DNA of 64,000 nucleotides from Psammoneis japonica (Eukaryota), in the NCBI GenBank assembly GCA_008632985.1, contig QPGO01000138.1, forward strand, positions 1 through 64,000, given 5' to 3'. Numbering within the stretch: position 1 is the first letter of the stretch; the number at the start of each line of letters is the position of its first letter. The notes beneath the pieces are model-generated. The model was not told the origin of the DNA, did no database searches, and saw nothing but the letters and a program-made list of their open reading frames with translations. Both the position numbers and the translations under genes were made by a program. Shown in pieces: positions 1,201 through 59,170 of this stretch.

Positions 1201-2919
1201 GACGCGGCCAAAGGGGTGGGGCGCCACACCTTGCCGGTATTTTGCAAAGTAGTTTCCGATTTGCAGGGGTAGGTGGGCCAAAGTGTCAAGCATGCACTCA
1301 GTATCGCATCATGCATGTATTCAATCATTGCGTCCATTGCTATTTTGGATGCCTTTGCTGAAGAACATATACTCATAAAATAGCTATAGAATTACAGACC
1401 ACGACGGCTTTGCTTTTCGCCCATTTTATTGAATTGGGAGTGCTTCTTTTCACAAGTACGGGAACTCCACACTTTTAGATGCTCTACGCAAGTGTTATCA
1501 AGTAAGCGACGTAGAGCGTTGTGTTAGACATGTCGCTTCACGGTTCAACTGTTCTTCTCTGCACTGAGCCTCGGATTCAACCCCGTTCCATTCTACAATC
1601 ATTAGAAAGTCCAGCAGCCAACACTTTGCTGTTGGTCTACACTGCCAGATGCCAACATGGGAAGAATGTACTAATGCATTGCAACTGGGGTCACAAAATG
1701 AGAATGGGCACTGTCCAAGGTGCGAAGGCATTGATGATTCACCCACACACCCACACACACACAAGACACACAGACATGTGGGGGCAGGAGAGCAAAAGCA
1801 ATGAAAACTCAATTCAATCCACGCACAAGACAAGAAAGGCAACTTGATGTCAAAGACCCATGTGGTTGGATCATCCCCTACACTGACAATGCAATTCCCA
1901 GACAGATGAATCAAATCCATTCTTCCACAAACTTTCGGACTTCATGTGAATTTTGCAAGATGCTTTGCACCGGCAATCTTCCAGAGTTGTGCCATTTGAT
2001 CCCCCCTGACCCCAACACAAGATGGTCTTGGGCAGTCTCCATGTTTTTTGTTGCTTTGGCACTGCAGCTTGTTGGGAGATAAAAGCCAAGCTCTCAATGA
2101 AACACTTGCCACCGTGCAGATTTGCAATCTTCTTCTGTTCTTGTCCACAGACAAAAATCACTTGATCATTCCCCAACAATGCCTGGCAAGCACTGGGCCA
2201 GGCCCAGCAGAGGGATCACACAACCCCAAAGTCTAGGAACACAGCAAACAGAAGATGGCCAGACTCACAGCACATTTTCCATGTTGAAAAATGTCCAGGG
2301 GTTCTTGCCACCTGCCGTGTGGATTTCTGAGTCACGAACAGTGATTCGCGGGCCAAAAAATGATCTGAGATTTGTTTTTTCAACAACAAAACAACAACAC
2401 AGTGAAGAACAGGGCTTCATGGCACTGTTTGGATGCCATCATCTCAAGCATGGTGTCAACGACAGTTTTTGATGCTTTTGCATTGGCAGAGATTTCCTCA
2501 TGGAAATGCAGCACAATTGTGCACAGAAAATCAAAAAATCTTGCACTTGGGTGCACATTGTCACATGTCATTTTTCTCAACAAAACACTGCTCTTTGTCA
2601 GCATTTCTCAACAGCACAACCTCAACAACTGATCCTGTGCAGCAAAAAGCTGCTGTGTCATTGTGCCGTGCATTGCATCTGTGCTGCGCCAGCCACTGGA
2701 ACACCACCTTTTGAAAGCAATGCAGAGTGCAGAGCAATGAACAACTGAGATGGATGAGATCCAATCAGTTGCAAGAATTGGATCTGTCAAAACAAAGCCG
2801 CTCTCAACAAATTTTGTGCTGTCACCATGAGAAGGTTCCATCCAGCACCATCCGGGCAATCTGCTGAAATGTGCCATTTCAACGGAAATGAGCGAACCCC
2901 GGATGTGAGAGCTGTTGAG

Positions 2920-3790
2920 CAGTCTTGCACTGAGCCTTTCTTGAGGTTCTTGAAGTGGCAATCTTTGCTGTTTTTGACAATCAGGTGCATTGTCCACGTC
3001 TCAAATGCAGACTTCTTCATTTCTTTCTGCTCGGTTGCAGTTGCTGCAGCATGCTCTTTTGAGTTTTCAACAAAGCCATCAAGCAACTTGTCACCCAGTC
3101 CTTCCCTCATTGCATTGCATTGGTTCTTGAATCATGACAGACAGTCATTGATCGACTCTTGTTCTTGTTGCTTCACCTCCAATGGGTTCTTGAGCACCTT
3201 GGTCAACACACGGAATGGGTGTCGACCCATCACAGAGTCACACGTCAGGGTTTGGATCAGCTTCAATGGCTTGACAAGATTGTCCCTGATCTTGTCACAC
3301 ACAGGATCTGCCAGCACTCTCTGCCTCATCAGCTTCGTGCACAGCAGTCTTCAAGGAACACAGCAAACCCTCTGTTCTTGTTTTCTTCAAACTGTTTGAC
3401 CTTGCTTCAACAGTCTCCGAGCTCAGCCTTGCATTCACACTCAAGCTGTTTGTTCTCTTTTTCTGCTTCTGGTGATTCCTTGCTCAATGCAGACACTTTT
3501 GGTGTTGGTGTCTCACCTGAAAAATCCATGTGTTTCATGTCTTTGAGTGATTGCACCAGGTGCCTGCCTTGTTCACACTCTTTTTGAATGCAGCGCATGA
3601 TCTTGTTCTTCACATCTTCAAACGTTGCATTGCAAGAGTCACTGTGCATTGATGAAGGACATAACTTCAGTTCAGGGTCAAAGCTCCTGTTGCTGCACGT
3701 CTTCTTCTTCAATCCAGAAGACTTGTGACTCTTGTTGCCACTGCCTGCCTTGACCTTGACTTTGATCTTGGCCTTTCTTGTGCAGATTGT
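2920..3790 (-). mobile_element. Decayed gag of a diatom-type Ty1/copia (CoDi-like) LTR retrotransposon, truncated before pol
   Basis: Broken minus-strand frames ATFEDVKNKIMRCIQKECEQGRHLVQSLKDM / MRQRVLADPVCDKIRDNLVKPLKLIQTL..GRHPF..KQQEQESINDCLS / LGDKLLDGFVENSKEH..MKKSAFETWTMHLIVKNS resemble diatom copia gag once C/H are read as Y; recognised from memory, not searched. Confidence 0.7.
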
Positions 3791-4504
3791 TCAATCCTCT
3801 GCCACTCATTTGTGCAGGCCACTTGATTCCTCAATGAAGGATTGTAGACTTGATTCAGCAAGCTGCACCTTGCACGCTTGCAACTCTTCAGAGTGAATGT
3901 TGAACTGATGGGTCAATGGCGGCAAAAGGGAATCTTGCAAAGCTTCCTCCAATCTTGCTGTGCTCGTCCTGGCTGCTTGTGCAGCTGTGGTTTGCCCAGA
4001 AGGTTGGTCGACACAACTTTGCACACTGGATGGATTTGGTTTTAACAGACACTTCCCAGTGCCGATGACAACAGTTCACACACCAGATGATTCACTCCAA
4101 AGAGTGAGAATGTTTCGTTTTGGGGATGACAGTGTGATGACAAAGAATTTGTCATCATCAGAAGGTCCACGTCAGGAGCCAAAAATCCACCAACTTCAAT
4201 TCATTCTGGGTTCTCCAACACCCTCATTCCAGGTTCTCTAGCAACACCCGCACTTGGCTTGCTCTGACAGCATGAGATGAAAAAAAGGAACAGGAGCAAG
4301 AGACAATGAGCCAAATTGAGCTTTTCTCACTGTCACCTTGCTGTCATTCATTGTGTTTGGAACAGAAGCAGCTGGGCAGCACCACACATGTAAGATTGAT
4401 GATGGCCCAGATGAAAAACCCAGTTGCTGCTTGTCTGCAACACACAGCTTCATCTTTTGAGTGCGCTGCTGACAATGAGTTGATTGGCAGAATTGAAATT
4501 AAAT

Positions 4505-4602
4505 TCCAAGGCTGAGCCAAAATTTGTCAAGCTGGCAAAAGAGTGTGGACATTGGAGTCCAAGGCTGAACTGCAATTTGTCAAGTTGGCAAAGGAGTGTG
4601 GG
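4505..4602 (+). repeat. ~53-bp tandem duplication
   Basis: tccaaggctgagccaaaatttgtcaagctggcaaaagagtgtgg vs tccaaggctgaactgcaatttgtcaagttggcaaaggagtgtgg. Confidence 0.75.
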
Positions 4603-5149
4603 TCACAGTGGAGAAAAAAGGGCATCCAAGTGAATGACTTGTGCTGTGCATCAATTCAAAGCTGAAGATTTGACTTTCAGGTGGAGCCAAACAGGACAAG
4701 AACAGCAAAGCCATCAAGCCACCACTGCTGCTCTGTTAGACAGATTTGTGTTCTTCTGCACTCTTGGACTGACTCCAAGAATGACACAAAAGTGGTGACA
4801 GGCACTTGATTGAATTCAACTCCAGCGTTGAACAAATTGATCTGGAAAAACAAAATTGTGTTTTGCAAGTCAAGCCAAGAAGAATGGAGGCTCCAGAAAG
4901 TTGGGACCTTTTGATGCAATTGTGAGACATGATGGGGTCAACTCAATTGTGTGAAAACTGACATTGACAGCAAGACCTTTTGTCAAAATGTCATGTTTCT
5001 GCCAGGAGAACTCAAAATTTGTTGGTGCACAAGCACTCTGCCAAATCTAGAGCCAGTCTCTGTGTCATTGTCAATGCAAAAAAAGGGTGGAGTCACTGCC
5101 TTTGTGGAACCAACTCAAAACAAAGGGGGGTGCACATTGTTTGTGTGGG

Positions 5150-6010
5150 GGGTGGAAAAGAGGATGATCCTGTGTTCACCAAGAACCCTCAAGATCTGGA
5201 TGTGATTGAGTGACTCCCATTGCTTGATGGCATTGACAAGGACAAAGTTGCTGGACAATTGCCCAGACAAAAAGCATCTCAAGCATCATCTGTTCAGTGC
5301 AATGCCCACCATTGCAAGAACCCAGTGCTTTGTGGCAATGCAGCTCATGCCACCGGCAGTGTTTCTGGGCAAGGCATCAACTCGGCTCTCTCTTGCCGAT
5401 GCATCAGCCTTGTCTGCATGCCTCAACCCCTTCTGGTTGCAGCACGAACAAGGATCAAGGATCCATGGTCAAAGATGCAATCATGCAAGAAGCTCTCTTG
5501 GCACATTCTCAGTCCAAAGTTCCAGAAGGCAAGGCACCGTGGTGTGAGTTGTTCTTTGGCAATGAAAGCAGCACTCCTGTTGGAAAATGGATCTGCTCGG
5601 CGCTCGCCACCACTCAAGATGCCATTTTTCAAGGCAAGCCAGGAATTGGGCACATGCCTCTGCAAACACTCTTGGCATCTTTGTCGACACTGTTTTCTGA
5701 CACTGTTTTCTGACACCTGACGTGATCATGATGGAGACTTTGACACTGCATTTCCCACTCCGGAGGAACGGAATGAGTGCTTGATGAGTTTGCTCAAGCA
5801 ACGCACTGCATGACATGGGGTTGTTTGGAGGTTGAGGCAATCAATCCATGAGACATGCACTGTGCTGTGCTGCTGGAACAACAAGTTGGTTCCCTTGTTC
5901 GAACTGCTTTGTGCTCTTGATCCTTGATTCGCGCTAGAGCGGTTGCTTTCCTCAACCTCTTGCATTCGTCCTCATTGACGGAGTTCTCCAAGACAGATTG
6001 TCTTCCATTT
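5150..6010 (-). pseudogene. Decayed ORF of unknown family
   Basis: Protein-like minus-strand text (KMPRVFAEACAQFLACLEKWHLEWWRAP...LWTENVPRELLA*LHL*PWILDP) interrupted by TGA stops that could derive from CGA. Confidence 0.35.
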
Positions 6011-6265
6011 CAAAATCTTGCAATTAACAGTTGAAAAGCAGGGATTTGAAAAATCCATGCGGGTCTACAATGAGTAGAATTGCACAGTTACACTACGAGA
6101 ACAGATGCTTCGCTCCTTCTCACATAAAACTTTGTGGATCACTCTTATCAACCACATTCTCTCTCTAGTCAGCACCACTCTCCGCGGAGAGAGGTGATCA
6201 GAGTCGCTGAACCGTTGAGTTGAAACAGCCGAGAAACTGAAAAATAAAAAGAGTAACATATTACT

Positions 6266-7843: not shown

Positions 7844-8000
7844 AAAGCTACCGTGTGGTTTCGAAATGTCATGCACGCACCAACTGCAATCATAGAACCT
7901 TTATCTATCCAATCCCAAGACGTTTAGAACTGCGGTATACTGGTTTATGATGTGTGTAAGAATCTAGATTTTTACTGGTATGAGTTTTTTGACGCGCTTA

Positions 8001-11513: not shown

Positions 11514-13534
<2,021 letters not shown>

Positions 13535-34728: not shown

Positions 34729-34849
34729 GGGGAGCGCAGGCATGACAGACGTAGCAAAATCTGCTGAGACAAACCGAGTGGGGAGAGGCAGCAACAACAC
34801 TACACACGGAGCGCTTGGACCGTCGACCAGAAGTTTTTATTTTTAGCCA

Positions 34850-35690: not shown

Positions 35691-36177
35691 GCAAGAGAGG
35701 AAACAAACGATCTGAACTGACCAATGGCGCTCATTGAGAACAAAATGGCAAATGAAAATCGAAACAGCGGTCGGCATTCAGCTGAGAAGCTTCTGGAGCA
35801 AAGCCAACAACCGCCCCCATCAACGACAAGACATCGAAACCAGCACATGTGGAGAACGACGGAAAAAGACACACCACAACAAACGGAGTGCTGCACATCG
35901 TGCTCTCGATGATAATGTTGCACTTAGCACCTTCATAAATGCCGCATCATCTCATACATCATTGTCAACTTCATTCTCGATTCTTGATGATTCTTGAATC
36001 CCGCAAATCCCAAATCCCGGAAATCATCATCATGCGCGATGGCTGTCGCGCACGACATTCCGTGCCTCTCCGTCAACCGCGACCCAAAACGAAACAAAGA
36101 AGGCACGACGCGACTCCTCCCTCCATCCACGACTGCAACTGACAAGCTTCATCATCTCCGTCGTCACATCGGAACCG

Positions 36178-37142
36178 ATGGCTCACCCTTTCACCAACAA
36201 GCACGCATGGGAAGCAAGGGGCGGTGATGCTGGAAACGTGGTGATTCTTACAAGGGGCGGAGTCTCGACGACAGAGGTCAAAATGTCAAAGCCCACCGCG
36301 GAAGCACCAGCAGCTGTTGATTCATTCGCAGGCGCACGCAAAAAGCACAAAATTTCAATCGTGGATCCCATGAACCGATTCAATTCCATGTCTCATGAGG
36401 AGCAGATCGCATCCTTGCCATTTTGTCTTGTTGACAAAGAATTGACGCTGGAAGAGTTCCACGCTCAATGTGATGCTCTCGAAGGCAGCGGGTGCTCTCG
36501 CTGTGAGTTTCGAGACGGTGGTGCCTAGATTTACGAGGCACCACTTGCTCTACATGATGACGCGCGGGAGAAGTTATTGTTGAGCTTGTTAGGCAGATGG
36601 GCGATCGTAGTAGAGATTTCAAGGTCTCGGCAAGCCCCAGGTGCGATAACAATGATGCCAACTGGTCCTTTGAGCCGGATGGATCGCTGAGAATTCGCGG
36701 TTTTCGTCCAGGACCCAACCATGTTGATGCTGCTGACAGCTTAGGAAACCGATGGCCAAATCTCATTGTTGAAATAGCACATTCAGAGACTGAAGAGCAC
36801 GTTCGTGCTAAAGCTTTGGCTTGGTTAGACACAGCTGAGAACCCAGAACATGGTGTTCAACAGGTGATTGTCATAAAGATTGGATATACGGTGCGTGGAG
36901 ATGGCCACAGGACAATGAAAGCTTGGCGGTATGAGCGTGGCGCAGATATCAACCCGGTGCAGGAAATGGAGTTTGGAAACCACGGTCCGAACAACGGGGC
37001 CACTCTACCTGGATCTCCCGGGATGCAGCTCCATGTCCCCATTAGGTCCTTGTACCTCCCGCTTCCACCGCCTGATGAATTGGGCGAAACACTGGATCTT
37101 GATTTATTTTACATTCGGAAAGTGATCGAGGAAGCATTTTAG
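36178..37142 (+). pseudogene. Uma2-like PD-(D/E)xK restriction-endonuclease-fold gene, disrupted (TAG at 36526-36528, frameshift ~36565)
   Basis: EFRDGGA*IYEAPLALHDDA..GEVIVEL, EPDGSL, WPNLIVEIAHSET..VRAKALAWL, VIVIKI match the Uma2-family pattern. Confidence 0.65.
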
Positions 37143-40560: not shown

Positions 40561-41101
40561 CTAGTTTAAATAAAAAAGCCATCTATGCTTGACTCATCAT
40601 CGACTTTAATGCCTGTCGTCGTTTTCCGTTGTTGTCAATTACTATTGTCGCTTCGTGCAACGCTTGGAGCTTGAGTTCCACCGAGATGCGCTTTGCCATT
40701 GTAATTTTTCCTACTCTGGAGTTTCCACACTGCCATAGAAAGTCCCCAACAGCATCTCATAAGAAGCTTACACTACCGGTAGTGCGAAACCGGCGGTATC
40801 TTCTTGATTAGAACATTTCATTCACTACCCTAGCTACTTTTACTCATTATCATGGGTGCCAATCATCTTCACAACCTTTTAGGCCTAAGACTTTAGGACT
40901 GCATGTTTTGCAGCTTTTCTACTGACGGCGAAAGGACCTTCTTCGAGCTCTGGTTTTGAAGACTTCGTACCGTAGCGACCTTGGGATTTCTTTTTCGGAT
41001 TATTTCGGAGGGAAGCGAGAAGCGAGACTTGACAATGATGTACAGTACCTCTAGAAACTGGGACGTATTAGCCGCAGTCCATCAAAGAGCAATTTTCGAA
41101 A

Positions 41102-44234: not shown

Positions 44235-45045
44235 TTTCAAAAAATAGAAATACTCTGTCAAAGGTAGGGCCAAAGGTATTTATGGTCTCAACACAGTACA
44301 GTACATGAACTATGACAGCAATCGTATGGCAGCAGAGTTTTCACAGCAGCGCAGACGGCATATTCAAGCACATTGAACATGGTCGGATCCGACGTTCCAC
44401 GACGCGACGTTCCGAACGAACAAACCTGCGCGCGCCGCGCGAGTGTGCAACGCTTTTGAGTCGTGGGCCGGGAGCGAGAGTCGTCGTCGCAATGCACGAC
44501 TCGACTGACGACGCAAGACTTGCAACGATCACCGATGGATGTTGGAATGGATGGTGTGGATGGGATCCAGGATCTAAATCGCGACGCCAAAAAAAACAAT
44601 GCTTGTACTTGCCACTGCACTCAGTGGAGCACTTTAGTGCAAGAACAACAAATGATGAAAACAGAGAAACATGAAGCTGCTGCTGCCACAAGTTGTCAGA
44701 GCCCCCCCCCCAAGGAAGGAAATTTTGCGTCAAGAAAGCGCACACCAAAGCTCTGCAACCTTGCAAGGTGCTGTCAAGACCATGGGCTGCAGTGTTTTTG
44801 GTTGAGCTTCATAACAGTGGGGAGGGCACTCTTGAAACAAATCATGGTGTCGCAGTTTTCAGCAGAGTGAAAAAGCACACGGCAGCTCTCGAGCCTCCCT
44901 GCTGCTTGACACAGCCAGCGCCGCTCTGTCTGGCAAAGCTGCATGCTTTTCCACAGAGCATTTCCAATTGACATGCATCAAACAGTCAATCTAGAGATCA
45001 AATCTGTCTGTGTGCTTTTCTGGGTGTGCCAGTCGTGTCCAAGAG

Positions 45046-45664
45046 CTTGGTTTGGTTTTGCCGCGGGATTCCCCAAAATTCCCCGGGATTGCCACAAGCA
45101 TGATTTCCCAAGGAATCACCATGAATTGCGCTTTGTCACATGCCCATCCCACACATGAACAAAAAATTGTGCATTGGGAATTCCCCGTGCTTCCCTCTCA
45201 TGCATTTCCACACCTTCTGCGTGCCGGGACGCTTGTGTGCAGATCCACACTTTTTTTCCTTCTTGTGTCGTGCGGCCCCAAATGCAAACAACAAGTGCTC
45301 CAGAGCAAAGGATGGGGCACAAATGGAGCTGCATGTGAGCAATGCCAATGTGCGTGATTTAATGGTGAAGTTTGTTCTTCCCTTGCTCTGCCACAAGGGG
45401 CCGTTTTGTGTGTCGATTTGTCGATGCATCCGTCATGGTCGTTGCCCGGCTGGGATGAAAACAAGAAAAAAGCACACCAGCCTAACCCAAATCAAACGGG
45501 AATTGCCGCAATGCACTTGTTTTTTGTTGCCCTCCCCAAGCCCTTTTAGTCATTCCTTCCTGCCAAATTGCCCTCATTTCCCGGGTGTTCCCCAAAAGGG
45601 TGAGGCAATTCCCCCTTGCCCTTGCCATTTTGGGGAATCCCCAAATGGACAAAACCAAACCAAG
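45046..45664. mobile_element. Non-autonomous TIR DNA transposon (MITE-like, 619 bp) with target-site duplication
   Basis: Perfect 15-bp TIR cttggtttggttttg (45046-45060) / caaaaccaaaccaag (45650-45664), second 15-bp inverted block gggattccccaaaat; flanking direct repeat tccaagag at 45038-45045 and 45665-45672. Confidence 0.8.
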
Positions 45665-45799
45665 TCCAAGAGCAAGCACTTCTTGTTTTGTGTGCTGCAG
45701 AGCAGCCCCCTGCCTTTTCTCAAGGGCTGCTTGTGCAGGACATGAGTTCACTTGGAGTTTGATGCTTTTGCAACCATCTGTTTCTGCCATTTGGGAAAA

Positions 45800-47700
45800 G
45801 CCCTCAAAACAAACAAGAAAAGAAGTTCTTCAGCAGCGCAGCTGAGGCACCAGAGAGCAGTCCTTTGCAGAAGCCATGCCTCAGAAAAGAAATTGCAAGA
45901 AATGTGAGCTGGCAAACCTGCCAACGTTCTGCTTCAAACTGAAAAGGGTGTGAATCTTGCAAAATGTGACATGGTGTGGTTTGAAATGACAATGTTCAGC
46001 ACCGCTGCACTTTCATTGGGAAAGGGATGCTGTGTTGATTGGGGTGTGCAAAGGCAGACAACTTCCTCCATGACATCCTGCATTTTGCACCCCCAAATCC
46101 TTGCTTCATTGACCCCCTGGAGAAGGACACTGACAGTGTTGCTCTTCAAGAAAAAAACCAGTTGAGTGTGCCACAGAAGATGCAAACCATGCATTGGGGG
46201 CACAGATGCTGATGGCACAGATCCAAAGAAGCTCTCACTGGCTTTCCTCCAGTTTCCTTTGACAGTGAATCTCAGCATTCAATGTGCTTGGCTGCCCCAT
46301 CAGTCTGCACAATTTTGCTGGAGATGTGAAGATGACGTTGCTGCTTGAAGAGCTTGAAGAAGTGCAATGTTTTTTGTTGACTGTCTGTGATCGTGCACTT
46401 TGCTCATGCAAGCAAGGGATGCAAGACTCATCATTGAAATGACGGGGAGTCAAGAAGAGACCTTCACAAATGTGCTTCTAGACAGCATTCGCCTGTTGAA
46501 GCATGTGGCAGCTCCACAATCAAGCCATGCTTGATTTGTTCAACAAGCCAAGGTCTGTTTTCACGAGCTTACAAATTCAATGGAGTTGCGGTGCCACTGT
46601 GCAAACCTGTTCCCGGCCATTCCATCTTTGCAAGAGATTGACAACAGCTCAAAGAATTGGCACACAACAAGTCAATGAAAAGTGCACACACTTGTTTTGC
46701 TTCACAAATTCATCTCCTCCTCACACAACTGGCACTCTGCCTTGAGAAACTCAGGGTGCATCAGCGCAAATTGTTGAAGCAGCAAGAGTTTTTTCAGAGG
46801 ATGCCTCAGCAACCACCCATTGCCTCGGTCTTGACCAAACTTGTTTTCACAATCTTGGGCATCTTCCATTGACAATGGAGCATCCAAGAGCAGTGTGATG
46901 GGATTGCCTTTCTGAAAACAGCACCCAGGTGGCCATCCACAAAGCTTGGACTCACATTGAATGCCTTCCCCATCATGAGCCAACTTTTTGATTTGCCTCA
47001 TGGTTTGTCCTGAGTTGTCCTTGCAGACTCCATCATGTTTCAAAAGAAATTCCTGCATGAAAAAGGGAAAATTTGAGCTGATGATGACTGAGAAAGCAAG
47101 TGTGCAATGACTGCATGCCTTCATCTTGAACAAACAGTGATCAACAACACTTTTGCCAAAGTTTTGCTGCAAGGATTTCTTCTGTTCCTTGAAGAGGTCC
47201 CAATCTTCTCATTTCAAGGTGCTTGACCTCCTGCTTTTTCATTGCCTTGGCTCCTCCTCCTCTTCAATGATGGAAAAGATTCCTTGGTGTTCTGGGAGAC
47301 ATGTTTTGAATCATCATCATTGTCAAATGACAGCCAGATGAGAGACTCACTGTTCTTCTGGAGCCACCACTTTGATTTACAACTTGTTTCAGGTTCGATT
47401 GTCCTGGGATGCTTTTTCTTTGTTGGTGTCAGCTGTGGCCCCCCGATTGGTTCCAGGCCCAAACTCTTCAAGTGTTGTTCATTTTGTGCAATCCAAACAC
47501 AAGTCGTTGCTTCTCACATTCACTGAGTTCATGCTGATCCATCTCATTGTTGATGTCCTCAAAACACTTGTTCTCTGTCTCTCTGAGTGTCTCTGTCACA
47601 ATGATTTGACAGAAAGGAGGGCATTGCCACTCAAGGGAGGGCACAATCCAGTTCATCAGCAGAAAAGGCTGATGTTGGTGAGAGTGGAGAGAGAGAGAGA
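45800..47700 (-). pseudogene. Large decayed ORF of unknown family (possibly TE-associated)
   Basis: Consecutive protein-like minus-strand fragments (47471-47214, 47172-46702, 46453-46235, 46278-45934), Tyr-free and C/H-rich. Confidence 0.35.
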
Positions 47701-47712
47701 GAAAGAGAGAGA
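47686..47712 (+). repeat. (GA)n microsatellite
   Basis: ggagagagagagagagaaagagagaga. Confidence 0.8.
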
Positions 47713-48675
47713 ATTTTGTCACAAATTAAAAATGCACTCCCAACTCCCAACCAACACAAATGTCATTTTCTCCTGCCAACATCATGACTCTCATCTCAAT
47801 GCAACAGCCAGCAACAAACACAAAACTGGGAGTGCAGAAGTGGCCACGTGTCCCCCATGTTGCTGGTGGGTGCACGTGAGGCTGTCTTGGACATTGTCCA
47901 CAATGCAAACATGGTGGAAGGCTCAAGGTCAATGACACACACCCCAACTTGGTTTTCTGCCCAGCAGGGCACTGTGTTGGTGAGCTGCCAGCTGACCTGT
48001 CCACTTTGTTGCTTTGCAGCAGAAGTCTGTGTGCATCAGCTGATGGCCCTTTTAGCTTGTTGCATTGCACAGATCTTCAACCTCACTCCCAGGCATTGCA
48101 AGCAGCTTTGCTGTCACACTCTCACTGACTGTGGGTGTTCATGCTGGGAGATTCATTTGAAGTGGGTGGAGTGCAGCACACATGGCTGTTTGTGTGCTCA
48201 AAACATGCACCGGCTCTCACAAACTTGCTGAGTTGTTGTCAGAGATCAATTTCACACATGGCTTGAGGCAGGCACAAACAAAAGCTTGTTTGCACAGGAC
48301 ATCAGAGAAGAAGATGAAGCTTCTGGTGGAAAGCAGCCATGTGTGGCCCACTGAGTGACCAGAGCACATTGGACAAATGAGTGGGTGCATTTCTGAGCAT
48401 GTGGCTCTAAACACTCTGGCCCTGATTGTGGGGCAAAATGTCTTGTGCCAGCCTTTGATGATGCCACCAACAAATGAGTGCAAAACATTGCAGCAGAGCA
48501 TTGGTGCACAAGCAACTGCATCCCCACGGCTTGCTCCTGGGCCAGCTTTTGCTTGAACAAACTTTTAAGCAAGGGCACTTGTGGCTCACATTTCAAAGAA
48601 AGCAAAGAGTGGAGGACTCTGCTTTGCTGCAATGGGCACTCTCTCATTGTTTTTTTTAGAACTCTTGCATCTTCT

Positions 48676-48755
48676 TGCTGGTTTGGCCATGGCAACAGCA
48701 TTGCTTGCCATGTGTCCTGTTTTGTTGCTGGTTTGGCCATGACAACAGCATTGCT
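48676..48755 (+). repeat. Short tandem duplication
   Basis: ttgctggtttggccatg(g/a)caacagcattgct twice. Confidence 0.75.
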
Positions 48756-50954
48756 CTCTTCCCGTTTGTGTGGTGCACATGTTCAAACCATGGCTTTTGC
48801 AAACATTTGGCTGCTCCTGCTGGTTGGTGCCACACCTGCTGCCAAAAAAACCCATGCTGGGTCAATCTTGCTTTGTTTGGCAAGGTCTTTCAGCAAGCAC
48901 TCAAGGATGTTAATTTCTCATTTTCTCCAAAAACTCATGCTGAGTCATTTGGAGCAGATTTGGTGCAAATTCTGCTGCATTTTTGGGGAAGGTGAATGAT
49001 TGAAATGAACTCTTGTGTGAAGAAAGGGGGGCAAAGCACTGGCACTTTGTGCAGACAATGGGGTTTGAGGTGGAAATGTGGCCATTGAAGTGTGTCCACC
49101 CACTTGGTCATTTCACAGTCATGTCCTGCAAAACCTCCCTGATCACAGCTGTTTGTGGCAAGATGTGGTGCCAGAGGCATTTGGACAAAGTGGTGTGATG
49201 TGGGCAAAAATTGGGTGCCCCACACCAGGACCCAACAGAAACAGGTGCTGATTGCCACATGCAATGCACTGGCATTGAAGCATGGCTCTTGGCAAAACAA
49301 GGAGTTGCTGCAGATTCCTTGCCACCACCTTGGCTTGGCCACAATCCTGATGACATGTCACAGTGCACAGCCACCAAATGGTCCAAACAATCACCAACAC
49401 ATGAACATGTCTGACACACAGAGCATGTGCTGCAGCATGTTGCTCACAATCCTCTCCTCAACTCATGTGCTCTTTTGACATTGCATCTTTTGTGGAGCTG
49501 CAATGTTGACAATTGACAACATCAACACAAGGTGAAAATCCAAAGCCATTGATGCAGGTGCAGCTTGTTTGTTGTTTTTTAACCCCACATTTTTTCAATG
49601 CCCAACTGACCAGTGTTTTGCCTTCTCTTTCACTTGGATCCCCCAGGCATCAGCCTTGCTTGTGTGGAGCTCTGCTTGAGAAATGAGGAGCGCAGCATCA
49701 TGTTGAAACTCTCAATCTTTGAGACATCTCTCTTGACACAGATTCTTTGGAAATGGCTGCATCTCTTTTGGGAGACAGGCACAAAAGAGTTGACTCATGT
49801 TCAACAATCCATTGCCAGAGTTGTCAACTCACTCTTGACAAATGACAACCTTGGGTGCCATGTGTTGGAGAGGTTTCACAACAACCTGCCCTGTGTCATT
49901 GGCAAGATGCTGAAGGATTGCTTCATCCCAAGCATCTTGTTGCCTTGCAAACTCAGTCCAAAGATCTGCTGCTTTCCTTGCAGCCACACCACATGGTGCA
50001 TCTTGTGGCCACACCCATTCTTTGCCAGCATGGCAGCAAGTTTTGGGAGCTCACACTTGCAAGTTTTGCCATGCAACAACAACTTGCTCTCACTGTCATG
50101 TGCATCTGTGTGGCTCTTGCTGGTTGTGGGTTTAGAGGCTTTGATGTTGTTGGGGCACAGATCAAACCTGGGTGGACCCACCACTGGGCCATTGTCATCC
50201 TCATGTCAATGCCCCCCTCTGGCACAAACGCTGAGGGCATCATTTCTTTCCTCAGCACAGGAGCACTTGGTTGTTGGCTCACCCACATCTTTGCAGTGCT
50301 CCTCTGCTTGCTTCTTTGCTGTCATCATGACCATGATGGCAATTTGTGGGTTTCCATTTTGCAGGTCCTCCTCCTCCTCCTTCTCCCATTGCTTGCCTCA
50401 CACATTGAGCTTTGCACTTTGATGCAGCCCGGCCTTTCTCTGCCTTTTTGTGAGTGCTGAGTTTCTTCATTGTCTTTGATGTAAGTGCAAATGCAAGACA
50501 TGTGGCAATTGATTGTGTGTTGTGGCAACACTGAGCACCTTGAGTTGCAAGAGCAGAGAGGGGTTGCTCAGACCCCATGTTGGCCAAGACATTGTCAGCA
50601 CTGCCTGTTTAAAAAGCAATGCTTGTCTTCACATGCAGAGCAGCTGTGATTGCAATCAAACTTTGGCCAGGGTCTTGCAAGCCAAATGAGACATCCTCAG
50701 TGGACAGCTGAGTGTGCAGCGAACCACTGGCACACACAGCAATTGCGCTTCTGTCTGGAAGCCCAAAGAGCATGAGCTGTTTTTTTTTTTTTTTCATGGA
50801 AATGGTGCAAATCCTCCTCCACATGTGCACTCTGCAGGAGTTTGCACTTGCCAAGCAAAACTGGCAAAGTTGCTTCACCACCCATGAATGACAGCACTCT
50901 GCTCAACAAACAAGTTGCACCATGTGTGGCACCTGCACTCAACATGAATCACTG

Positions 50955-51560
50955 CCTGTCTGCCCATCTCTCTTTGCTTGGCATTGGCAATCATTGCATG
51001 GAATTGACTCCAAGTGGGGCTTTCTAAAGTGGTGAGAAAAAAGAAGAGTGAAACCTGACTGGAAAAGGAAGCAAGAAGCAGACAACTCTGGCAAGAAGCA
51101 AAGCATTTGCTGCTTTGGACAAGCTCAGAGGAAAGCAAAGAAGTGGAGCTCAGACACAAAGATGAGGCAACAAAACAGAAAGACATGCCCTTGCAAGCCA
51201 CTGCAAAGATTGCAAGCAATCCACACCACAACATTGTCACCTGGTCAAGCTTGCCTGTCATTTTTCACAAGGATCCCATGGTTTTGAAGCAAGCAACAGT
51301 TGCAGGCAATTTTCCATTTGCCAGCCACAAGTTTTGAAATCAGCCCTTTAAAAGGTGTCACCAGACACTTTTGAGAACTGTTGATTGGCTGCACTCAAGG
51401 CCTGTGAAAGGGACCTTTTGATGGAAAGAATTTCAGAGAGTCTTTTGTGGACATCCAAGGGTGATCACACACCCCTTCTCCTCCAACAAGCAGATGATTT
51501 TTTTCAGTTGTTTGCCCTGCCTGAGTCATTTGCAAACAAGATTTTTGGCACACCTTGGGA
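50955..51560 (+). pseudogene. Hypermutated, internally deleted paralog of the adjacent 52.3-kb gene
   Basis: Collinear with 52262-52770 (e.g. KDEATKQKDMPLQA..KDPMVLKQATVAGN..AALKACERDLL vs KDEVTKQKDASLQA..KDPMVLKQATVAGN..AALKACERDLL). Confidence 0.85.
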
Positions 51561-52355
51561 TGCACTTTGACTTTGTGAACAAGGATGCTGTGCCGCTCAA
51601 AAGTGTCTTGTTCTCTGTGCAAAGACAACAGCATCTGTGTCTCAATCACGACTGTCCTTCACTCTTTTGCAGCACACGAGTGTCTTGGGCAAAACAATCA
51701 TCTCTGGCAGATGTCTTTTTTTCTTAAAGCAGCCACAAGTTGCACTGCCTTGTTGCTGCATTGGGTGCTTCAGGACCACACAGCAGCAAACACACAACAG
51801 CTCTCCAGGAAGGCAGGCAGGCGCCCAAGTTTCGCACAAGTGCTGCCCTTTTTGCAGCCACCCCCAGCACACAGTGGCACATGGCACAGAGGGGCAGTGT
51901 CCTCAAACCAGCAGACTTCAAGCCCAGCCACTCTCTACGGCAGAAGGGTTACACGCCATAATTGTTGGCACAGCGAGCACCAACCGCAATTGTGGCGCTG
52001 ATCCGTCCTCTCTCGATTTTCACAAAAATGCTGCAAATCTGTCCAAATCCGCTTAACCGTGCCACTTTCGACGCGACCTGACAGATGGCCAGACTGTCAT
52101 ACTACCGGTGCCGGCCGTGCGTGCCGGGCGGTAAGAAGCTCCCGCGCGCGCTGAGCGCGCGACATTCCGTTGCTTTCTGATTTGAGATTCCAGATTTTTG
52201 TCGTTGTTTTCGAGTTGTTCTCATGCCACTTATTTCCCTAACCACTAAACTGCTGCAATCGTTGCTGCCCCATCTCATCCTTGCTTCACATCCGCAATTG
52301 GCTGTTTGGAATTGACTCAGAGCGGGGCGTTCTAGAACGGCGAGAAAAAACAAGA

Positions 52356-54106
52356 ATGCAACCCGACAAGAAGAGGAAGCGAGTGGACGACGACTCTGGC
52401 AAGGAGCAAAGCCGTTCGCCATCAGCATCTACTCACGAGCTCGAAGACTTGCTCAGGCAGAAGGAAGACGAGCTCAGAAGGAAAGAAGAGGAGCTTAAAC
52501 TCAAAGATGAGGTGACAAAGCAGAAAGACGCATCCTTACAAGCCGCCGTGAAGATCATATGTGATCCATCCCCTCGTCATTTTTCCTGGTCCGACTGGCC
52601 TGTCGTTTTGCGTAAGGACCCCATGGTTCTGAAGCAAGCGACAGTGGCAGGCAATGCATCAGTTTTTCGATCAAACGTTTCAAAATCAGTTCTTCAGAAG
52701 GTGTTGCCAGACATGCTTGAGAACCATCGATCGGCTGCGCTCAAAGCCTGTGAAAGGGATCTCTTGAAATGGGAAGAAGTGAATCCCACTGCGGATGAAT
52801 GGCGCGAATCGATGCCTTTATCCGTGAAGGCGTTGAGGCATGGCATGGTGGGAGACATTGCCGATGTGCCCCTCTTGACGAATCCAATTTTGGCCAATGC
52901 GTTGAAGGAAGGAAAAGTGGAGTGGAATCGCATTCCAGCGCGTTTGCAAAATGACGCAGAATTCTGTTGCCTCGTGCTTGACCCGAATGGAAACCATGAT
53001 GTTGAAAACTATGACTGTCGCCATTTTTCGTACGGGTCCAGTTTTCACAATGTTGTGATGAACATTTTTGACCGTTTTCCTTGCCTTTCTCAAGATCGCC
53101 AGGTTTGGGAAAATGTTTTAAGCTCTTGTTCAACTGCCGTTCTTGGTCTTTTCCAGGAAGAGCGCTTGCCACCCTTTCGGGATCTTGTGGAACGCGCCTG
53201 CGATGAGAATTGCGATCTAATTGAGTGCATTGATCAGACATCATTTGAGGATGTCGTTCAGATGGTGACAAACAAAGATTCAAACTGCCTCTTCCGTGCG
53301 TCTGCAGAGTTCATTGAGTCGCATCAGGACTTCGTGACCGAAAAGCTCAATGACGTGCACATTCATGATGTTGGTCGGGAAGACAAGGACATCCGCAGCC
53401 GACGTTGTGGGATCGAATTTCTTCAAATGAACATTGAAGTGTTCGCAGGGCGGATTCCAACAGACATGTGGAATGGGGATTTTGGGGCGTCGTGGCTTCT
53501 TAAGGGGCTTCCAATCTTACCACCACATCCAGTCGAATGGAAAAGAGACCATGAGAAGCTCTTGCTGGCAGTGAGGAACTGCCCAGTTTATGATTGGATC
53601 GTGAGATCGCTGCGTTTAGCCCCCGAGCAACTCAGGGGTAGTTCCGACTTTATCAAGGAAGTGATGGAAAGCAACCAATGTCTTTTTGAAGTTGCTTTGG
53701 ATAATTTGCGGAGTGGCGATTACAAATTGGCTATTTGGGCAATGGGTGACCCATGTTTTTTCCGCAAGTGGTCAGAGTCCACACGGAGATGGCAAGAACG
53801 TTCATCCATCTGGGCACGACTCCTTTGTTGACGGCAGAGAGATTTGGAGAATGCCTGAGTCGCGCTAAAGAGGAAACAGAAGCTCAAGAGAAATTTGAGA
53901 GAGAATTCGTAGGGGCGGCTTCTGTTGATGCCGAGCTGAGAAGGATGCCGAGAGATGTTCTAACGATCATAGAGGATTTCGCGGGGATTGCCAATGGCGA
54001 ACCTCTCCGCAACATTCGGAAAACAGTGAAGCTCATTGACGAGATGAAAGCCGCTGCTGCCGCGAACCAAGGCCGTGGTGACACGACGAGAGCGGTTGCT
54101 TCGTAA
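52356..54106 (+). CDS. Lineage-specific DUF4116-like repeat protein; frameshift around 53750-53830
   Basis: Long ORF with repeats such as IPARLQNDAEF, PVEWKRDHEKLLLAV, APEQLRGSSDFIKEVM; C-terminus continues in ORF 53753-54106; ATG at 52356. Confidence 0.55.
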
Positions 54107-54599
54107 TTCGCAGATGTTGTGCCACAGGGGGAACCAGTGCAGTGCTCGTTGTACAAAGCATTTGATTTTGTAGCGGAAGCCCACTTGCACCGATGATTCA
54201 ACAAAATAAAGCATTGCTTTTTGTGTGTCCTTTTTGCCAGTTCAATGCACCTCCCTTGCTCTTCGAATGCATCCAACACTGGCAGAATGCCGCACGACTC
54301 CAGCCGAGTGAATGGCACTTTAAACCAAAAGGCGATGCATCTCGCGCCATGCGATTTCCCATGTGAGCATTTCTCTTTCGAACAACCCATTCGATCGCGC
54401 AAGCAATTGGCCGTCAAATGCAACGAACGAAAAGCAGGCAAGCAGCCAACGCAGAACTGTTCGGATGTTTTCGGGGTGAAGATGCACCCGCACCGAAGAA
54501 ATTGTACATCTCGTCATTCAACTTAAAGTGTCTTTGCCCTGCATCCTCTGGGGGGAACAACCGCCGCATCTCTCACTTCAGCCCTTCTCTCACGCATCG

Positions 54600-57500
54600 G
54601 GACTTTCACCAAATGCTGGATCTCTCATTTCAGCCCTTCCCTCACGCATCAGCTTGCACCGAATCATGTTCTTGGACATGGTCCAAAACAAGCTGCCCCA
54701 TGCAAACAAAGTCAGACAGTTCCAGATGCACCTGTGCAGACAACCTTGTACAGCACATTCCACTTGTTGGTTCTTTAACTGCCAGCATGCACATGTTGTG
54801 CTGTTGCAACATGTGTTGCTGAAGATTGGACACAACAGCAATGTTTTGTGTTGGCAGACCAATGTTGATCATAAACTCCTCCATCTGCTCTGGGGCTAAC
54901 AAAGACACATTCCACAATTCAAAAGTCCACTGGTGACTTTGTGGGACACACTGGCAATGCCATCTTTGCTCTCAGGCACCAACGCATGGCATGCAGATGC
55001 CCTTTGGCTCAGCTGTGTGCTTGGGGTGGCTGCATGATGGCTGCAGAAATTGACATTGGGCACCTCTGCTTTGATCATCCTCAGCACCCCTGTTGTCAGA
55101 ACATCTAGATCACAGACATTGATGACAACCTGGATCAGTTGAAGAAAAGACAGTTGGCTTCTGACATGACTCACTGAGTGCAACACATTGGGAAAGAAAT
55201 TTCTCTTTGCAGTGAATCATTTGGTTTGCACAATTTGTCATTTGGTGTCAGTGGGTGCCTGTTGTCATGCAAGTTTTGCAGTTTGCACTGTGCCACAGCA
55301 TCCCACAGCCATTGCAGCTCACCAAGGCAAGTGCATTGAATGGTGCAGGAAGCCCAGAGGATTTCCTTTTGGCAACATTGACTTGCCAGCTCAGTGCTCA
55401 CTCCAAACAGTCACCATCACTGCACTCAGTGCTCACATGTGTGTTGACCTGCACTGAGTCAGCTGAATGCCTGCACTGTGAGTGGCAGCAAGAGGAGAGG
55501 CAGCAGGAGCAAAACAGCCAAGGCCAATGATGTTGCAGTCTTCTCAGAGGTGACAAGAGCCAAAGCAGGTGCTCCAACAAGAACAAGATCATGACCAAAA
55601 CAAAAAGCACTTTCAGCCTGAAACAATGGAGTTTTGTCATTCATCAATGAAAAGCAACTCTTGAAATGCAGCATTCAACGGCTTCAAGAAAAAGGTTTTT
55701 TGATGCACACTGAAGGAAGATTGCCAAGGCATGCATTTGGCAAGGTCTTTGGACATGAAATGCAAGGATTTTGGTGCTGAGAAGGACCAAGATGATCACC
55801 ACTGGTGCAGAAAAGGAACATGACCAAGGCATGCATTTGGTGAGGTCATGCTGACATGTGGTTTTTGCCGGAACAATGACCAGCAATGACAAAGCAGTCC
55901 TGGAAACCACATGAGAGCCTCCAAGGGCAAGGCAAAACACGCAAGTGACAGCTGCACAGAGTCTTGCAAGAAACAAATGATCAGCGTTGGTCAAGCTTTG
56001 CCAAGGGCAGTCTGCAAAGGATGACACCTGGCAACCCAATCACCATTGATGGCTGTTCCATTGCTGGTGGATTTTCCAATTTTCCAGTTTTGGTGATGTG
56101 GTGCAAAAATGGATTTCCATGTGGTTTTGCATGTGCAGCTTTGCACGAGGATTTGCACTGAGTTTCATGGTGATCTCTTTTGTTGCACACACCTGCTCTA
56201 GCTGGAGTGCACACTCTGAGCTCAAAGCTGAAAAAAACCCAAACAGCTCTTTTGTTCTGTGCATCAATCAATGCAACACAATGGGTGCTCAAGGTGGCAG
56301 TGTGGTCCTCCACAGCATTGCCTCCTTTTCCATTGCAAATGTTCTAAATGCTGCAAAGCATCTGTTGGAGGTTTGGCAATGCGGTGGTCTGCCAGCCATT
56401 GCTGGTGTTGACTCCAGTTGGATTGGTCTGAGGGGGCTTGCTCCTTTGGCGGCAACATTGTTGCACACCCTGGGCCAGGTGTCACATCACTTGTGAATGC
56501 CAGTGTTCATGCAACAATGGTGTTTGACCCCAAGACTTGTCATCATGCAAAAGTTGCATCAATCAAGCAGGCTGGGGAGAGGGAGACGGCTTGTGCAGCA
56601 AAAGCCCAGAGTGCCGTGCATGGCTTGAAACCTCAGAGATCACCTCACAACTGTGGAAACCAGATGTTGTGGAGGCGTGTTGGGTGCATTCATTGGAAAG
56701 CAGAAAACTCTCCAATCAAAAGTTAAAGCTTGTGAAACACAAGGATCAAAGAAGCTTCCTCCAGACTTTCACTTGCTTGTCATCAAGGAAGCACCTCAAT
56801 TGCAGCCATCAAACTCAGTTCTTTGCATGACAGGAGACTTCCAGGCAGATTCAGTTGCTGTTTTGCAACTCAGTTTGTCACTGTGAAGCACAGATTGTGA
56901 TGGGAAATGACTCAGAATTTTCTTTCATTTGTGAAGAGCGGTTCTGATGTGATTTCTCCATTCTCCTTGTGCTCTCCTTTGTCACCTGCTTCTCTGGCCC
57001 TGCCCTCTCTGGGGCAGGTCTTCAGGGGGGGGGGGCAAGGGCTTGAATGTCCAACTCACGGAGGGCGTTGAGCTTTGGTGGAGTGGGCAATGAAGCTGAG
57101 CCACATGTGGACATTGATCATGCAGAGCTTGAGGAAGCTGTTTCCCCAGACCCAGGTGCTCCTTTTGCTGCTCTTTTGTCTTTGGCATGTGGCAACCAGG
57201 ACTGGGCTCCATGAGTCAGCAACTTTGTTGTGACAGGAGATGATGAGGGAGCACCCCCCAAGGTGTTTCTGAAACAAGGGCAGAAGACACATTTCCTTTT
57301 TTCTGATGCACCCAGCAATGACTGCAGCATCATCATGGTCAAAAATTTGACAGACTTGTGGGCCCTTTGTCATGATGGTGGTGTGATGCATGAAGCATTG
57401 CAGGCAGGCAAAGGCCAGATGTTGTGTCTGTGGCAAAGTCTCTGCCAGCCATGCATGTGCAGCTGTGATTTCAATCCCTTTCAACAATCAACAGCTCCAG

Positions 57501-59170
57501 TCATTTGACTTCTGCTTTGCACCAACATGTCAAAGCATGCTTGGAAGAGAATGTCCAGGGAGAGCAAAGTTTCAAACAAGCAAAAGTTGTCAGAGATCCC
57601 TGTGTCTAAGCAGGAATGACATGATCCACTGAGACCCCTCCCCCCAATGGGAGAATCGTGACCCCAGTGAGTCTGGGCACACTGTTTTGCTGGTGAACAG
57701 TGCAGTGGTGTGTTGTTGCTGCCACCTGGCATGCAGGAGGGACAATGGCATCCACTCAATGTGTCTGCCAAATGCCAGAAAAACAAAATCCGTGCAACAT
57801 TCTTGGTGAGCATGTCGCTGCAGTTGGCAGAGCAATGTCGTTGGGGTCCATGGACAAGAGAAATGGACCGGGAGTCTTCCAGAATGTTTTGGTGTTGCAG
57901 CATTGTTCCAAAGACAAGGACAATTTGCTGGGAGTTGCAAGGGCAGTTCCCACAACTTGGGCATCTGGGGAAGGAGTGGGAGCAGATGAGAGGTGGCAAG
58001 GCCATCAGCAACAGCATCCAATGTGGAAGTGATGCATTCCGTCACTGCAGGACTTGGATCCAATGGAGTGGGAGCCATGGTTGCAGCCAGAGAAGGCATG
58101 GATGAATGATGTGTTCTCCGAGTTCCTTCTGGACCCCAGCAACTGCACAATGAGCAGCTTCTGACACATTGGCAGCTGTTTTAATGTGACCGGCCGCCTG
58201 CACCTGGGCAGCATCATTCTGAGAGATAAGTTTTGGGCTTGGAGGCCGTCCAGTTGATTCCCAAGTGCATCCACGAGACGGTCCTTTGCAATGAATCTTG
58301 CCTCAATGCTGGTGGCGGATGATGGGACCGCAGCTGAGGAAGTCAAAGAATTCATGGTGACATTCTCACAGTCTTCGAGGATGTCTGTCATGGCAGTTGC
58401 AACAGCGAGACCATTCTGAATTGTTTGCTCAGCGGCCATCATGGTGGTGTCCAGAGCCGGGCAAGAGTGAAATCTGAGTCATCTGCCTGTTGTCTCACAT
58501 TGGTTTTTTAATGCAAGCCTGGAACTTTTTTGTGTGGATCGACATGGTCGCCCACAGCACGGATGGCATCCGAGGCAGCATGTTCCCCAATCAATTGGTC
58601 CATTCAGCCACAAAGGATGCCACAATGGAGTGAGTGGTGGTCGTTGTGGTGCAGATGCATTCAAGCATTGCAGCATCCACAGCTTTGTAGACTGGGACAA
58701 TTTTCTTGTCCAGAGCCGCAAGAAATTGAGCATCTCATGATGCCAGAGCTTTGTTCACCGCATTGCCGGCAAGGGCAATGGCTTCAGTTGCAGAGCAGCT
58801 TCCAGCAAGCGTGGCGGCAAGCGAGGTGGCGCCGTTTGCACTGGTTGCTCTGATGTGGAGTCTGCCGGAGGCATCGGAGGGGGTGTCACTCCCTCTTCTG
58901 GAGCTGCATCAGGTGCCTCAGGAGTTGCTTCAGCCTCAACAGCATCCTCTGCCATTGGATGCGCATGAGAGGTGTCTTGGTGGCCTCGACCGTTTTGGCA
59001 GAGCAGTCAGGTGATGGGGGATTGCGGCCGCTGCAGGTGGGGCAGTGACCACTGGAGTGCCATCGGCCAACTTTGGTGAGAGGGTGGCCTGAAGGGACGA
59101 CAGAGCAGCCCACCACAAGGACGCCATTTTCGAACAAGTGCTGTTGACAGGCGCCATGGTGTTGGACAAT
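54600..59170. other. Hypermutated repeat island D containing decayed ORFs of unknown family
   Basis: Very few TA, CG-poor core, protein-like minus-strand fragments at ~54230-55200 and ~58000-59160. Confidence 0.8.

Follow-up and report, generated by a model that had tools for sequence, protein, structure and literature searches.

Mutation systems that act at the DNA level on selfish or silenced sequences all work, as far as we know, on cytosine: repeat-induced point mutation (RIP), decay of methylated CpG, and the AID/APOBEC enzymes. In this study, a 64,000-nucleotide stretch of the Psammoneis japonica genome (contig QPGO01000138.1, positions 1 to 64,000, assembly GCA_008632985.1; hereafter the window) was analyzed for several islands that have lost nearly all TpA dinucleotides (TA) and carry an excess of CpA and TpG (CA and TG). 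We put at about even the chance that such multi-kb domains undergo a DNA-level, TpA-specific transition process yielding CpA or TpG.

RIP, described in Neurospora and other fungi, resembles the pattern in the window in several respects. Both consist of dinucleotide-specific transitions on both strands, extend over multi-kb domains that include duplicated DNA, approach saturation, and leak a few hundred bp into the flanks. RIP is tied to later cytosine methylation, an order that would also apply here. The direction of change is opposite, however: RIP converts C to T at CpA and creates TpA, whereas here TpA is destroyed and CA and TG are raised 1.49- and 1.57-fold. RIP makes DNA AT-rich and generates stop codons, whereas G+C is unchanged here (0.483 in the islands vs 0.482 in background) and no stops are made. 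RIP mutations made within one round are strand-coordinated; nothing of the sort was seen here. With regard to duplication as a RIP-like trigger, parts of the affected DNA are old duplicates or multi-copy, and most of island 3 is single-copy at a likeness of at least 90%. The DNMT4 enzymes of diatoms are related to RID, their function being given as unknown in the relevant part of PMC9998398; neither T>C nor A>G could be brought about by the C5-methyltransferase fold of DNMT4.

Other systems match parts of the pattern. Methyl-CpG decay accounts for the CG-to-TG/CA half of it. This half is symmetric, unclustered, without flank preference and confined to part of the domains, with 75-92% of CG lost in the CG-poor segments, which were presumably methylated. 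The TA process differs in having a flank rule and a wider footprint and in occurring without CG loss. A-to-I deaminases (ADAR, fungal mRNA editing, TadA/ADAT and adenine base editors) share the A>G change with a 5′ U/T preference; their natural forms, however, act on RNA, and activity on DNA is known solely for engineered TadA. Very short patch (VSP) repair in enterobacteria has a bias that turns a TA-containing word into CA/TG forms and depletes CTAG. In dinoflagellates, 5-hydroxymethyluracil (5hmU), like base J, is a thymine mark on repeats and transposable elements (TEs) with a preference for T in TpA and TpC; it differs from the present case in being an epigenetic mark rather than a mutator and in belonging to another lineage, and no TA depletion is reported in the parts of PMC11572971 that deal with it.

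Extent and composition of the TA-poor domains

TA-poor and CG-poor states were called separately along the window by two-state segmentation, and dinucleotide observed/expected ratios (o/e) were computed in sliding 500-bp windows. An initial annotation of the window had described four islands with almost no TA. The depletion itself stands, and the counts given for 2236-3661 (0 TA, 22 CG), 44641-51900 (21 TA, 58 CG) and 48913-49579 (0 TA, 0 CG) were exact on recount. The extent had to be revised, since the TA-poor state is wider and forms three domains, the third of which runs unbroken from island 3 across partly depleted DNA into island 4 (Table 1). The CG-poor segments are nested in the TA-poor domains, except for the first, which starts 88 bp earlier. 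Domain edges are sharp in the segmentation. TA-free sequence extends at most over 1428 bp (2234-3662), followed by stretches of 1093 bp (55106-56199) and 1069 bp (34844-35913); at the background density of 0.035 TA per bp, the chance of a 1426-bp TA-free run is about 2e-22.

Island windows showed o/e values of 0-0.09 for TA, 0-0.3 for CG and 1.5-2.1 for TG+CA, compared with about 0.5, 1.0 and 1.1 elsewhere; TA o/e for the whole window was 0.39. The reported excess of TG and CA was thereby reproduced, as were the continued abundance of AA and AT (1.02 and 0.89 of background) and the normal TA content of neighboring genes, among them the Tyr-rich Got1 open reading frame (ORF). Selection against stop codons was ruled out as the cause of the depletion, TGA being abundant in the islands, where each reading frame holds 32-78 stops. 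The right part of domain 2 (35.9-36.5 kb) enters an ORF at 35998-36528 that is TA-free and CG-rich. This ORF adjoins another, at 36561-37142 on the plus strand, which is TA-normal and has a weak, sub-threshold match to Uma2, a putative restriction endonuclease fold; the Uma2-like ORF lies directly beside domain 2.

Table 1. Coordinates of domains, repeats and selected reading frames in the window
Feature	Position	Strand	Basis and content
TA-poor domain 1 (island 1)	1673..6024		Segmentation, windows; 12 TA in 4352 bp, CG 13.1 per kb
TA-poor domain 2 (island 2)	34845..36525		Segmentation; 5 TA in 1681 bp, CG 47.6 per kb, not CG-poor
TA-poor domain 3	44362..59175		Segmentation; unbroken 14.8 kb, 78 TA; spans islands 3 and 4 and partly depleted DNA between them
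CG-poor segment in domain 1	1585-5899		Segmentation; nearly matches domain 1
CG-poor segment in domain 3, island 3	44586..51937		58 CG and 24 TA in 7352 bp; includes 48913-49579
CG-poor segment in domain 3, island 4 core	54661..58190		21 CG and 10 TA in 3530 bp
Region of apparently early-stage TA loss	52000..54520		TA 14.7 per kb, CG 60.7 per kb (background about 58)
Open 529-codon ORF (P0001)	52242..53831	+	Weak DUF4116 match below the Pfam cut-off; region multi-copy by read depth
Degenerate copy of the 5′ part of the neighboring ORF	50956..51430	+	Paralogue of 52262-52776
MITE-like element, 619 bp, inserted in island 3	45046..45664	+	Terminal inverted repeats 45046-45084 and 45627-45664 (about 35 bp)
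Island 1 segment, old duplication	3307..4389	+	Purine/pyrimidine match to 54982-55970; robust core 3521-4104 vs 55203-55772
Island 4 partner of the island 1 segment	54982..55970	-	Purine/pyrimidine match, inverted
Got1 ORF	39613-40560		PF04178, E 1.7e-8; Tyr 8.5%, 51.7 TA per kb

The TA and CG missing from the islands are balanced by CA and TG. Pyrimidine-purine (YpR) steps made up 0.2366 of the islands and 0.2369 of background (0.2348 ± 0.0055 in background 4.5-kb windows, n = 21). The losses of CG (0.0439) and TA (0.0316) came to 0.0755, and the gains of CA (0.0363) and TG (0.0388) to 0.0751; TA was reduced to one tenth of background. For a simulation, the window's own background was mutated by turning 83% of CG and 92% of TA into TG or CA at random. 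This gave a CA/TG frequency of 0.1119 compared with the 0.1118 observed in island cores, and AA/TT was 0.0836 simulated, 0.0853 in the cores and 0.0796 in background. The trinucleotide correlation with the cores was 0.712 for untreated background, 0.895 when CG alone was mutated, and 0.970 when both CG and TA were. With CG alone, TA stayed at 0.0364 and CA/TG reached 0.095; deamination of 5-methylcytosine (5mC), which cannot remove TA, does not explain the whole pattern. These results indicate that the island composition is a conversion of host-like DNA and not a foreign composition; foreign DNA as the source of the islands was ruled out by the YpR mass balance with host composition.

In the cores at 2000-6000, 45000-51900 and 54700-58900, GpC lay about 22% above and ApT about 15% below the simulation, with the purine-pyrimidine (RpY) total unchanged. 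To account for this residual, one may suppose either that A:T>G:C change also took place, at a lower level, at RpY steps, or that the ancestral composition differed.

Polarity was provided by the degenerate ORF copy in island 3 and its paralogue. The two are 70-75% identical in the four-letter alphabet and 91% in the purine/pyrimidine (R/Y) alphabet. At the 26 CG sites of the ORF copy, the island copy has TG or CA in 21 and no CG is kept; at its 6 TA sites, TG or CA is found in 5. The pair also shows 9 double differences of CA against TG, 90 transitions and 32 transversions. Together with the mass balance and the simulation, it upholds the view that a second process beyond 5mC deamination removes TA by transitions.

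Strand symmetry, flank rule and TA loss without CG loss

To assess regional confinement, the islands were compared with 13 long ORFs located elsewhere and with the remaining 17.9 kb of non-island DNA. GTA made up 18% of 536 GTN codons in genes and 0.9% of 1993 GTN trinucleotides in islands; for CTA the values were 13% of 574 CTN codons and 1.6% of 2369 CTN trinucleotides. Four-fold sites, codon boundaries (0.56) and other non-island DNA (0.58) keep TA at an o/e of about 0.56-0.58. The process is regional, as had been proposed.

TG and CA counts in the four islands were 470/506, 146/167, 814/827 and 523/523, in line with the claim that both strands are affected. The two dinucleotides are randomly interleaved (runs z of -0.98, -2.82, -1.01 and +0.68 for the four islands; window chi-square p 0.15), without clustering. 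Each event of the process involves a single strand, and the two strands are hit to the same extent. Since TG equals CA, editing of an RNA intermediate is excluded.

The TA that survives in the islands follows a flank rule, which is new in this analysis. With R for purine and Y for pyrimidine, 35 of the 52 surviving TA are in YTAR (TTAA 14, CTAA/TTAG 13, CTAG 8) and 2 in RTAY, whereas the 1497 background TA include 242 YTAR and 464 RTAY (chi-square 70.7, p 3e-15). Expressed as density, RTAY fell from 11.29 per kb in background to 0.06 per kb in islands (survival 0.5%), RTAR/YTAY from 9.61 to 0.35 (3.6%) and YTAR from 5.89 to 1.94 (33%). The base 3′ of A among surviving TA was A in 53 cases, G in 32, C in 11 and T in 8. 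The three survival values fit independent hits on two strands at a rate about five times higher at R-T-A than at Y-T-A, and overall the process is about 5-7 times faster at R-T-A; read on the other strand, R-T-A is A>G at T-A-Y, that is, at an A followed by a pyrimidine. CG survival was 20-24% whatever the flank class, and the flank rule sets the TA process apart from CpG decay.

Under an R-T-A rule, RTAR should turn into RCAR rather than RTGR. As anticipated, RCAR gained 14.78 per kb and RTGR 4.90. RCAR+YTGY over RTGR+YCAY was 1179/748 in islands vs 1714/1466 in background (Fisher p 3.4e-7), and the excess ratio ran from 1.39 to 2.88, in the same direction in all five island pieces; three pieces were significant alone, I1 (p 3.6e-4, ratio 1.67), I3b (5.3e-5) and I3a (0.03). 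ADAR-edited retrotranscripts were ruled out as a source of the pattern by the strand symmetry, the lack of clustering and the survivors in UAG context.

TA loss also occurs where CG is intact. Between 52000 and 54520, about 58% of TA is lost and no CG. The remaining TA comprises 5 RTAY, 20 RTAR+YTAY and 12 YTAR (chi-square 9.4 vs background classes, p 0.009); scaled from background, survival is about 18%, 41% and 81%, respectively. This is the same flank gradient as in the islands, at a lower dose. The initial annotation implied that TA loss and CG loss go together. Their co-location holds in most of the affected DNA but fails in this region and in island 2, showing that the TA process is independent of CpG decay. 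TA loss apparently precedes CG loss.

The CG-intact region contains the open 529-codon ORF P0001, which has 13.2 TA per kb, compared with about 30-36 in other genes, and a normal CG content. Tyr accounts for 0.8% of its product, Cys for 3.8% and His for 2.5%; in most other ORFs, Tyr lies at 1.3-2.6%. A single homologue (P0002, 35% identity) was found among 5.8 billion proteins. Conversion of TA to CA or TG changes TAA to TGA or CAA, TAG to TGG or CAG, and Tyr codons to Cys or His codons. As this class of mutation makes no stop codon, the open frame of P0001 is not evidence of function; P0001 may be an early-stage mutated copy that is open for that reason alone.

Read support, repeat content and neighboring genes

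Contigs from a public read set (X1, possibly the source sample), at a depth of about 57-68, cover the islands, and one of 3,910 bp spans 45635-49544 with 3 differences. The initial annotation had proposed a check against raw reads; the read-derived contigs carry the island sequence. Since they reproduce the islands, the TA poverty is not an artefact of this assembly. Depth rose to about 1400 over 45068-46135 and to 130-270 over 52.0-55.7 kb.

X1 differed from the window at 196 places, 151 of them transitions. Among the 40 differences listed were 6 adjacent CA/TG doubles, all between 52787 and 54795, in the CG-intact region and at its right edge; also listed were 10 with CG, 4 of TA against CA or TG, 10 other transitions and 4 transversions. 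As the doubles lie where CG is retained, they suggest that different copies lost TA independently, following duplication. The four TA differences, at 44810, 46934, 53227 and 54750, are possibly haplotype polymorphisms of the TA process; at three of these sites, where contig depth equals total depth, the contigs differ from the assembly itself.

The proposal that the islands are TE or repeat DNA held in part. In its favor are old duplications, the multi-copy ORF region at 52-55.7 kb and one miniature inverted-repeat transposable element (MITE). No TE protein family appeared when three of the four islands (1, 3 and 4) were translated in six frames, stops being read as X, and scanned against Pfam; heavy mutation may hide domains there. 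The lone Pfam signal was a sub-threshold Ig C1-set match in island 1. A search of the islands in R/Y space detected no pairs of long terminal repeats or terminal inverted repeats other than those of the MITE, and four-letter self-BLAST of the window returned just the paralogy between island 3 and the ORF and three short repeats outside the islands. The old duplication between islands 1 and 4 scored 137 in R/Y space vs at most 44 in 3 shuffles; its alignment of 945 positions contains 580 identities, 250 transitions, 115 transversions and 37 discordant CA/TG sites.

The MITE-like element is flanked on both sides by an intact 8-bp target-site duplication, TCCAAGAG, of the length that hAT elements make. 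Its read depth is about 20-fold the baseline of about 60, and read contigs diverge exactly at 45046 and 45664. It contains 3 TA, all YTAR (o/e 0.08), and 20 CG (o/e 0.52). Its terminal-repeat pattern gave 0 matches in a metagenome scan.

Genes in the window are eukaryotic and encode midasin, ATG14, an F-box protein, a kinase, Got1 and PDH-E2. A diatom origin had been supposed, and all named PDH-E2 relatives are indeed diatoms (Chaetoceros, Seminavis, Cylindrotheca, Ditylum, Attheya and Amphora; 67-83% identity). The PDH-E2 ORF contains a tandem duplication (9305-9518 and 9780-9993), and its E3-binding domain matches Pfam in two stretches. The midasin gene (16980-31612, minus strand) consists of five consecutive ORFs of 2432, 279, 910, 516 and 616 aa, separated by short introns or frame changes, with a Pfam check on the 910-aa ORF only; a metagenome scan with a midasin fragment matched 52 pattern stretches and found 0 relatives, and a search for midasin homologues yielded no named taxon. 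A short internal repeat lies in the kinase ORF (60139-60316), and a single N occurs at 42116 within a WD40 ORF (41072-42127).

Proposed process, competing explanations and significance

The affected domains contain gene-free, partly duplicated and probably silenced DNA; in them the process runs to about 92-97% completion and leaves all other A:T contexts alone. Because AA, AT and other A:T contexts are kept while 92-97% of TA is lost, its specificity for TpA looks very high. The process is probably enzymatic and steered by chromatin or repeat state, in the manner of RIP with inverted chemistry. Methylation and CpG decay would come after TA loss, and if TA is lost first, its rate of loss must exceed that of methyl-CpG decay. 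Tyr codons, TAA and TAG stops and TA-containing signals would be erased, and no stop codons made. A hitherto undescribed defence mutator of diatoms, or of this one at least, which recognizes silenced or duplicated DNA and converts A:T to G:C enzymatically at TpA (T-A-Y/R-T-A) on both strands before methylation, is a tentative reading, to which we give rather less than even weight. No description of TpA-specific depletion or of A:T>G:C hypermutation in diatom or algal repeats was found in the literature searched (supplements excluded), and matches to dinucleotide terms were all to fungal RIP. By term search, the classic diatom retrotransposon paper by Maumus et al. 2009 (PMC2806351) does not contain dinucleotide, deamination, hypermutat, RIP or TpA.

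As to chemistry, adenine deamination is the simplest route to A:T>G:C. The leading guess, with perhaps one chance in three, is that a TadA/ADAT-like enzyme, working on DNA, converts adenine to hypoxanthine in TAY of either strand. In tRNA, U33 precedes A34. The preference for T-A-Y partly fits the A-then-C motif of TadA/ADAT (ACG in tRNA-Arg), with TAT lost as well as TAC. According to the relevant part of PMC10661471, the A edited by TadA/ADAT2 is followed by CG, and the ADAR hot spot is UAG, whereas TAG and TAA survive here.

Several points weigh against the proposed process or its chemistry. A natural deaminase that acts in this way on adenine in DNA is not known to us, in most targets of eukaryotic ADAT the base following A34 is a purine, and no candidate enzyme gene was found within the 64-kb window. 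The evidence comes from this one window, and two metagenome scans gave no relatives. Polarity derives, besides the mass balance, from one paralogue pair with just 6 TA sites, in which the reverse also occurs once, CA in the ORF copy standing opposite TA in the island copy. In the comparison of P0001 with P0002, a weak one, 9 Tyr positions of P0002 are aligned, of which P0001 keeps 1 and has His at another and Cys at a third. The simulation misfits for GC (0.0715 in the cores vs 0.0586 simulated) and AT (0.0556 vs 0.0651), and the expectations come from a background made up mostly of coding sequence. Further such points are that islands 1, 3 and 4 showed no TE protein domain when scanned and that much or most of island 3 is single-copy, by read depth at a likeness of at least 90%. 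The TA floor is 2.6-2.9 per kb in the three fully depleted islands despite CG losses from about 77% to 92%, as would be expected if TA loss came in a burst, limited itself or reached an equilibrium, but not from simple continuous decay. Finally, none of the 7 copy variants listed within the MITE involves TA, and a young, high-copy element that is TA-poor while keeping CG implies that TA poverty can be inherited at the family level.

The MITE bears most directly on the explanation that element families were already TA-poor at insertion, through their replication cycle or foreign origin, and underwent CpG decay alone in place. The initial annotation had named natively TA-free young elements as a finding that would speak against a mutational process, and the MITE, with its intact target-site duplication, is partly such an element. 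The simulation from the window's own background at r = 0.97 and the mass balance argue against family-level composition, as do the loss of 5 of 6 TA from the island copy of a host ORF, the CA/TG doubles that imply loss after duplication, the spread of TA loss beyond island 2 into its flank, where part of an ORF is affected, and the equality of TG and CA, which speaks against an RNA intermediate. We hold this explanation improbable. An attack on thymine is the main rival to adenine deamination, and we consider it unlikely: a TET/JBP-type enzyme would make 5hmU or 5-formyluracil at TpA in silenced DNA, and mispairing or misrepair would fix T>C at R-T-A. T>C at R-T-A describes the signature just as well, and TC in the islands is somewhat below the two-process simulation (0.0611 vs 0.0688), but the gain in CC is small (0.0517 vs 0.0491). 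5hmU pairs mostly with A, so that near-complete loss of TA would need very high mutagenicity, and we know of no such enzyme or base in diatoms. In dinoflagellates, a TET/JBP homologue makes 5hmU, mostly on repeats, and helps to silence TEs, and earlier work cited there found thymine replaced preferentially in TA and TC dinucleotides (relevant parts of PMC11572971).

A side effect of repair is as improbable as native composition. In such a scheme, T:G mismatches at TpA would be repaired with a bias toward C:G, as in VSP repair, or frequent 5mC deamination in methylated DNA would trigger error-prone patch synthesis, as by polymerase eta. Over most of the affected DNA, TA loss and CpG decay do coincide, and TA loss consists of transitions alone, on both strands and unclustered. 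TA is also lost in the CG-intact DNA at 52000-54520 and 35.9-36.5 kb, however, so deamination-triggered repair is not required. Polymerase eta mutagenesis at its WA motif, which includes AA, was ruled out, since AA is untouched. VSP repair concerns one pentanucleotide and has a mild, genome-wide effect, far below a depletion to 3% of expectation, and its target CTAG is among the best survivors here (8/52). Still less probable is a general neutral bias of TA toward CA or TG, without targeting, that becomes visible where selection is absent. The window as a whole is TA-poor, outside the islands as well (about 0.5), and the islands are its sole large gene-free stretches. Such a bias is opposed by the TA kept at four-fold sites, at codon boundaries and in the 17.9 kb of non-island DNA, with 13-18% of CTN/GTN codons ending in A, by the sharp domain edges, and by a background flank preference in the opposite direction, RTAY being commoner than YTAR. 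A mutation-accumulation study of another species, Phaeodactylum tricornutum, also speaks against it: the relevant part of PMC6604790 reports a GC>AT bias, with CG, CC and TG as mutagenic contexts, and no TA effect. A sequencing artefact, in which modified bases in the domains were miscalled as TG or CA, is very improbable. No sequencing platform is recorded for the assembly or for X1, and modified bases bias nanopore consensus; against this, k-mer contigs at a depth of about 57-68 reproduce the islands, the ORFs are degenerate, the old paralogues differ by 115 transversions and many indels, and a TA-poor, CG-normal open ORF fits real evolution.

Regional removal of TpA by A:T>G:C change would need an enzymology other than that of the cytosine-directed mutators, namely a deaminase that naturally acts on adenine in DNA, or else a thymine modification that is mutagenic. 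If the reading as a defence mutator is true, adenine (or thymine) editing at the DNA level would be found in nature for the first time, as a chemical mirror image of RIP, and elements would be inactivated through the loss of Tyr codons, stop codons and TA-containing signals. A TpA-directed A>G activity that works naturally on double-stranded chromatin would also be of interest to builders of base editors. Because the process makes no stops and removes two of the three, mutated copies keep long ORFs, which can mislead gene prediction, the Tyr-poor and Cys/His-rich P0001 being an example. For diatom genomes, TA-free stretches, an excess of RCAR/YTGY and surviving TA in YTAR would serve as a signature of silenced DNA.

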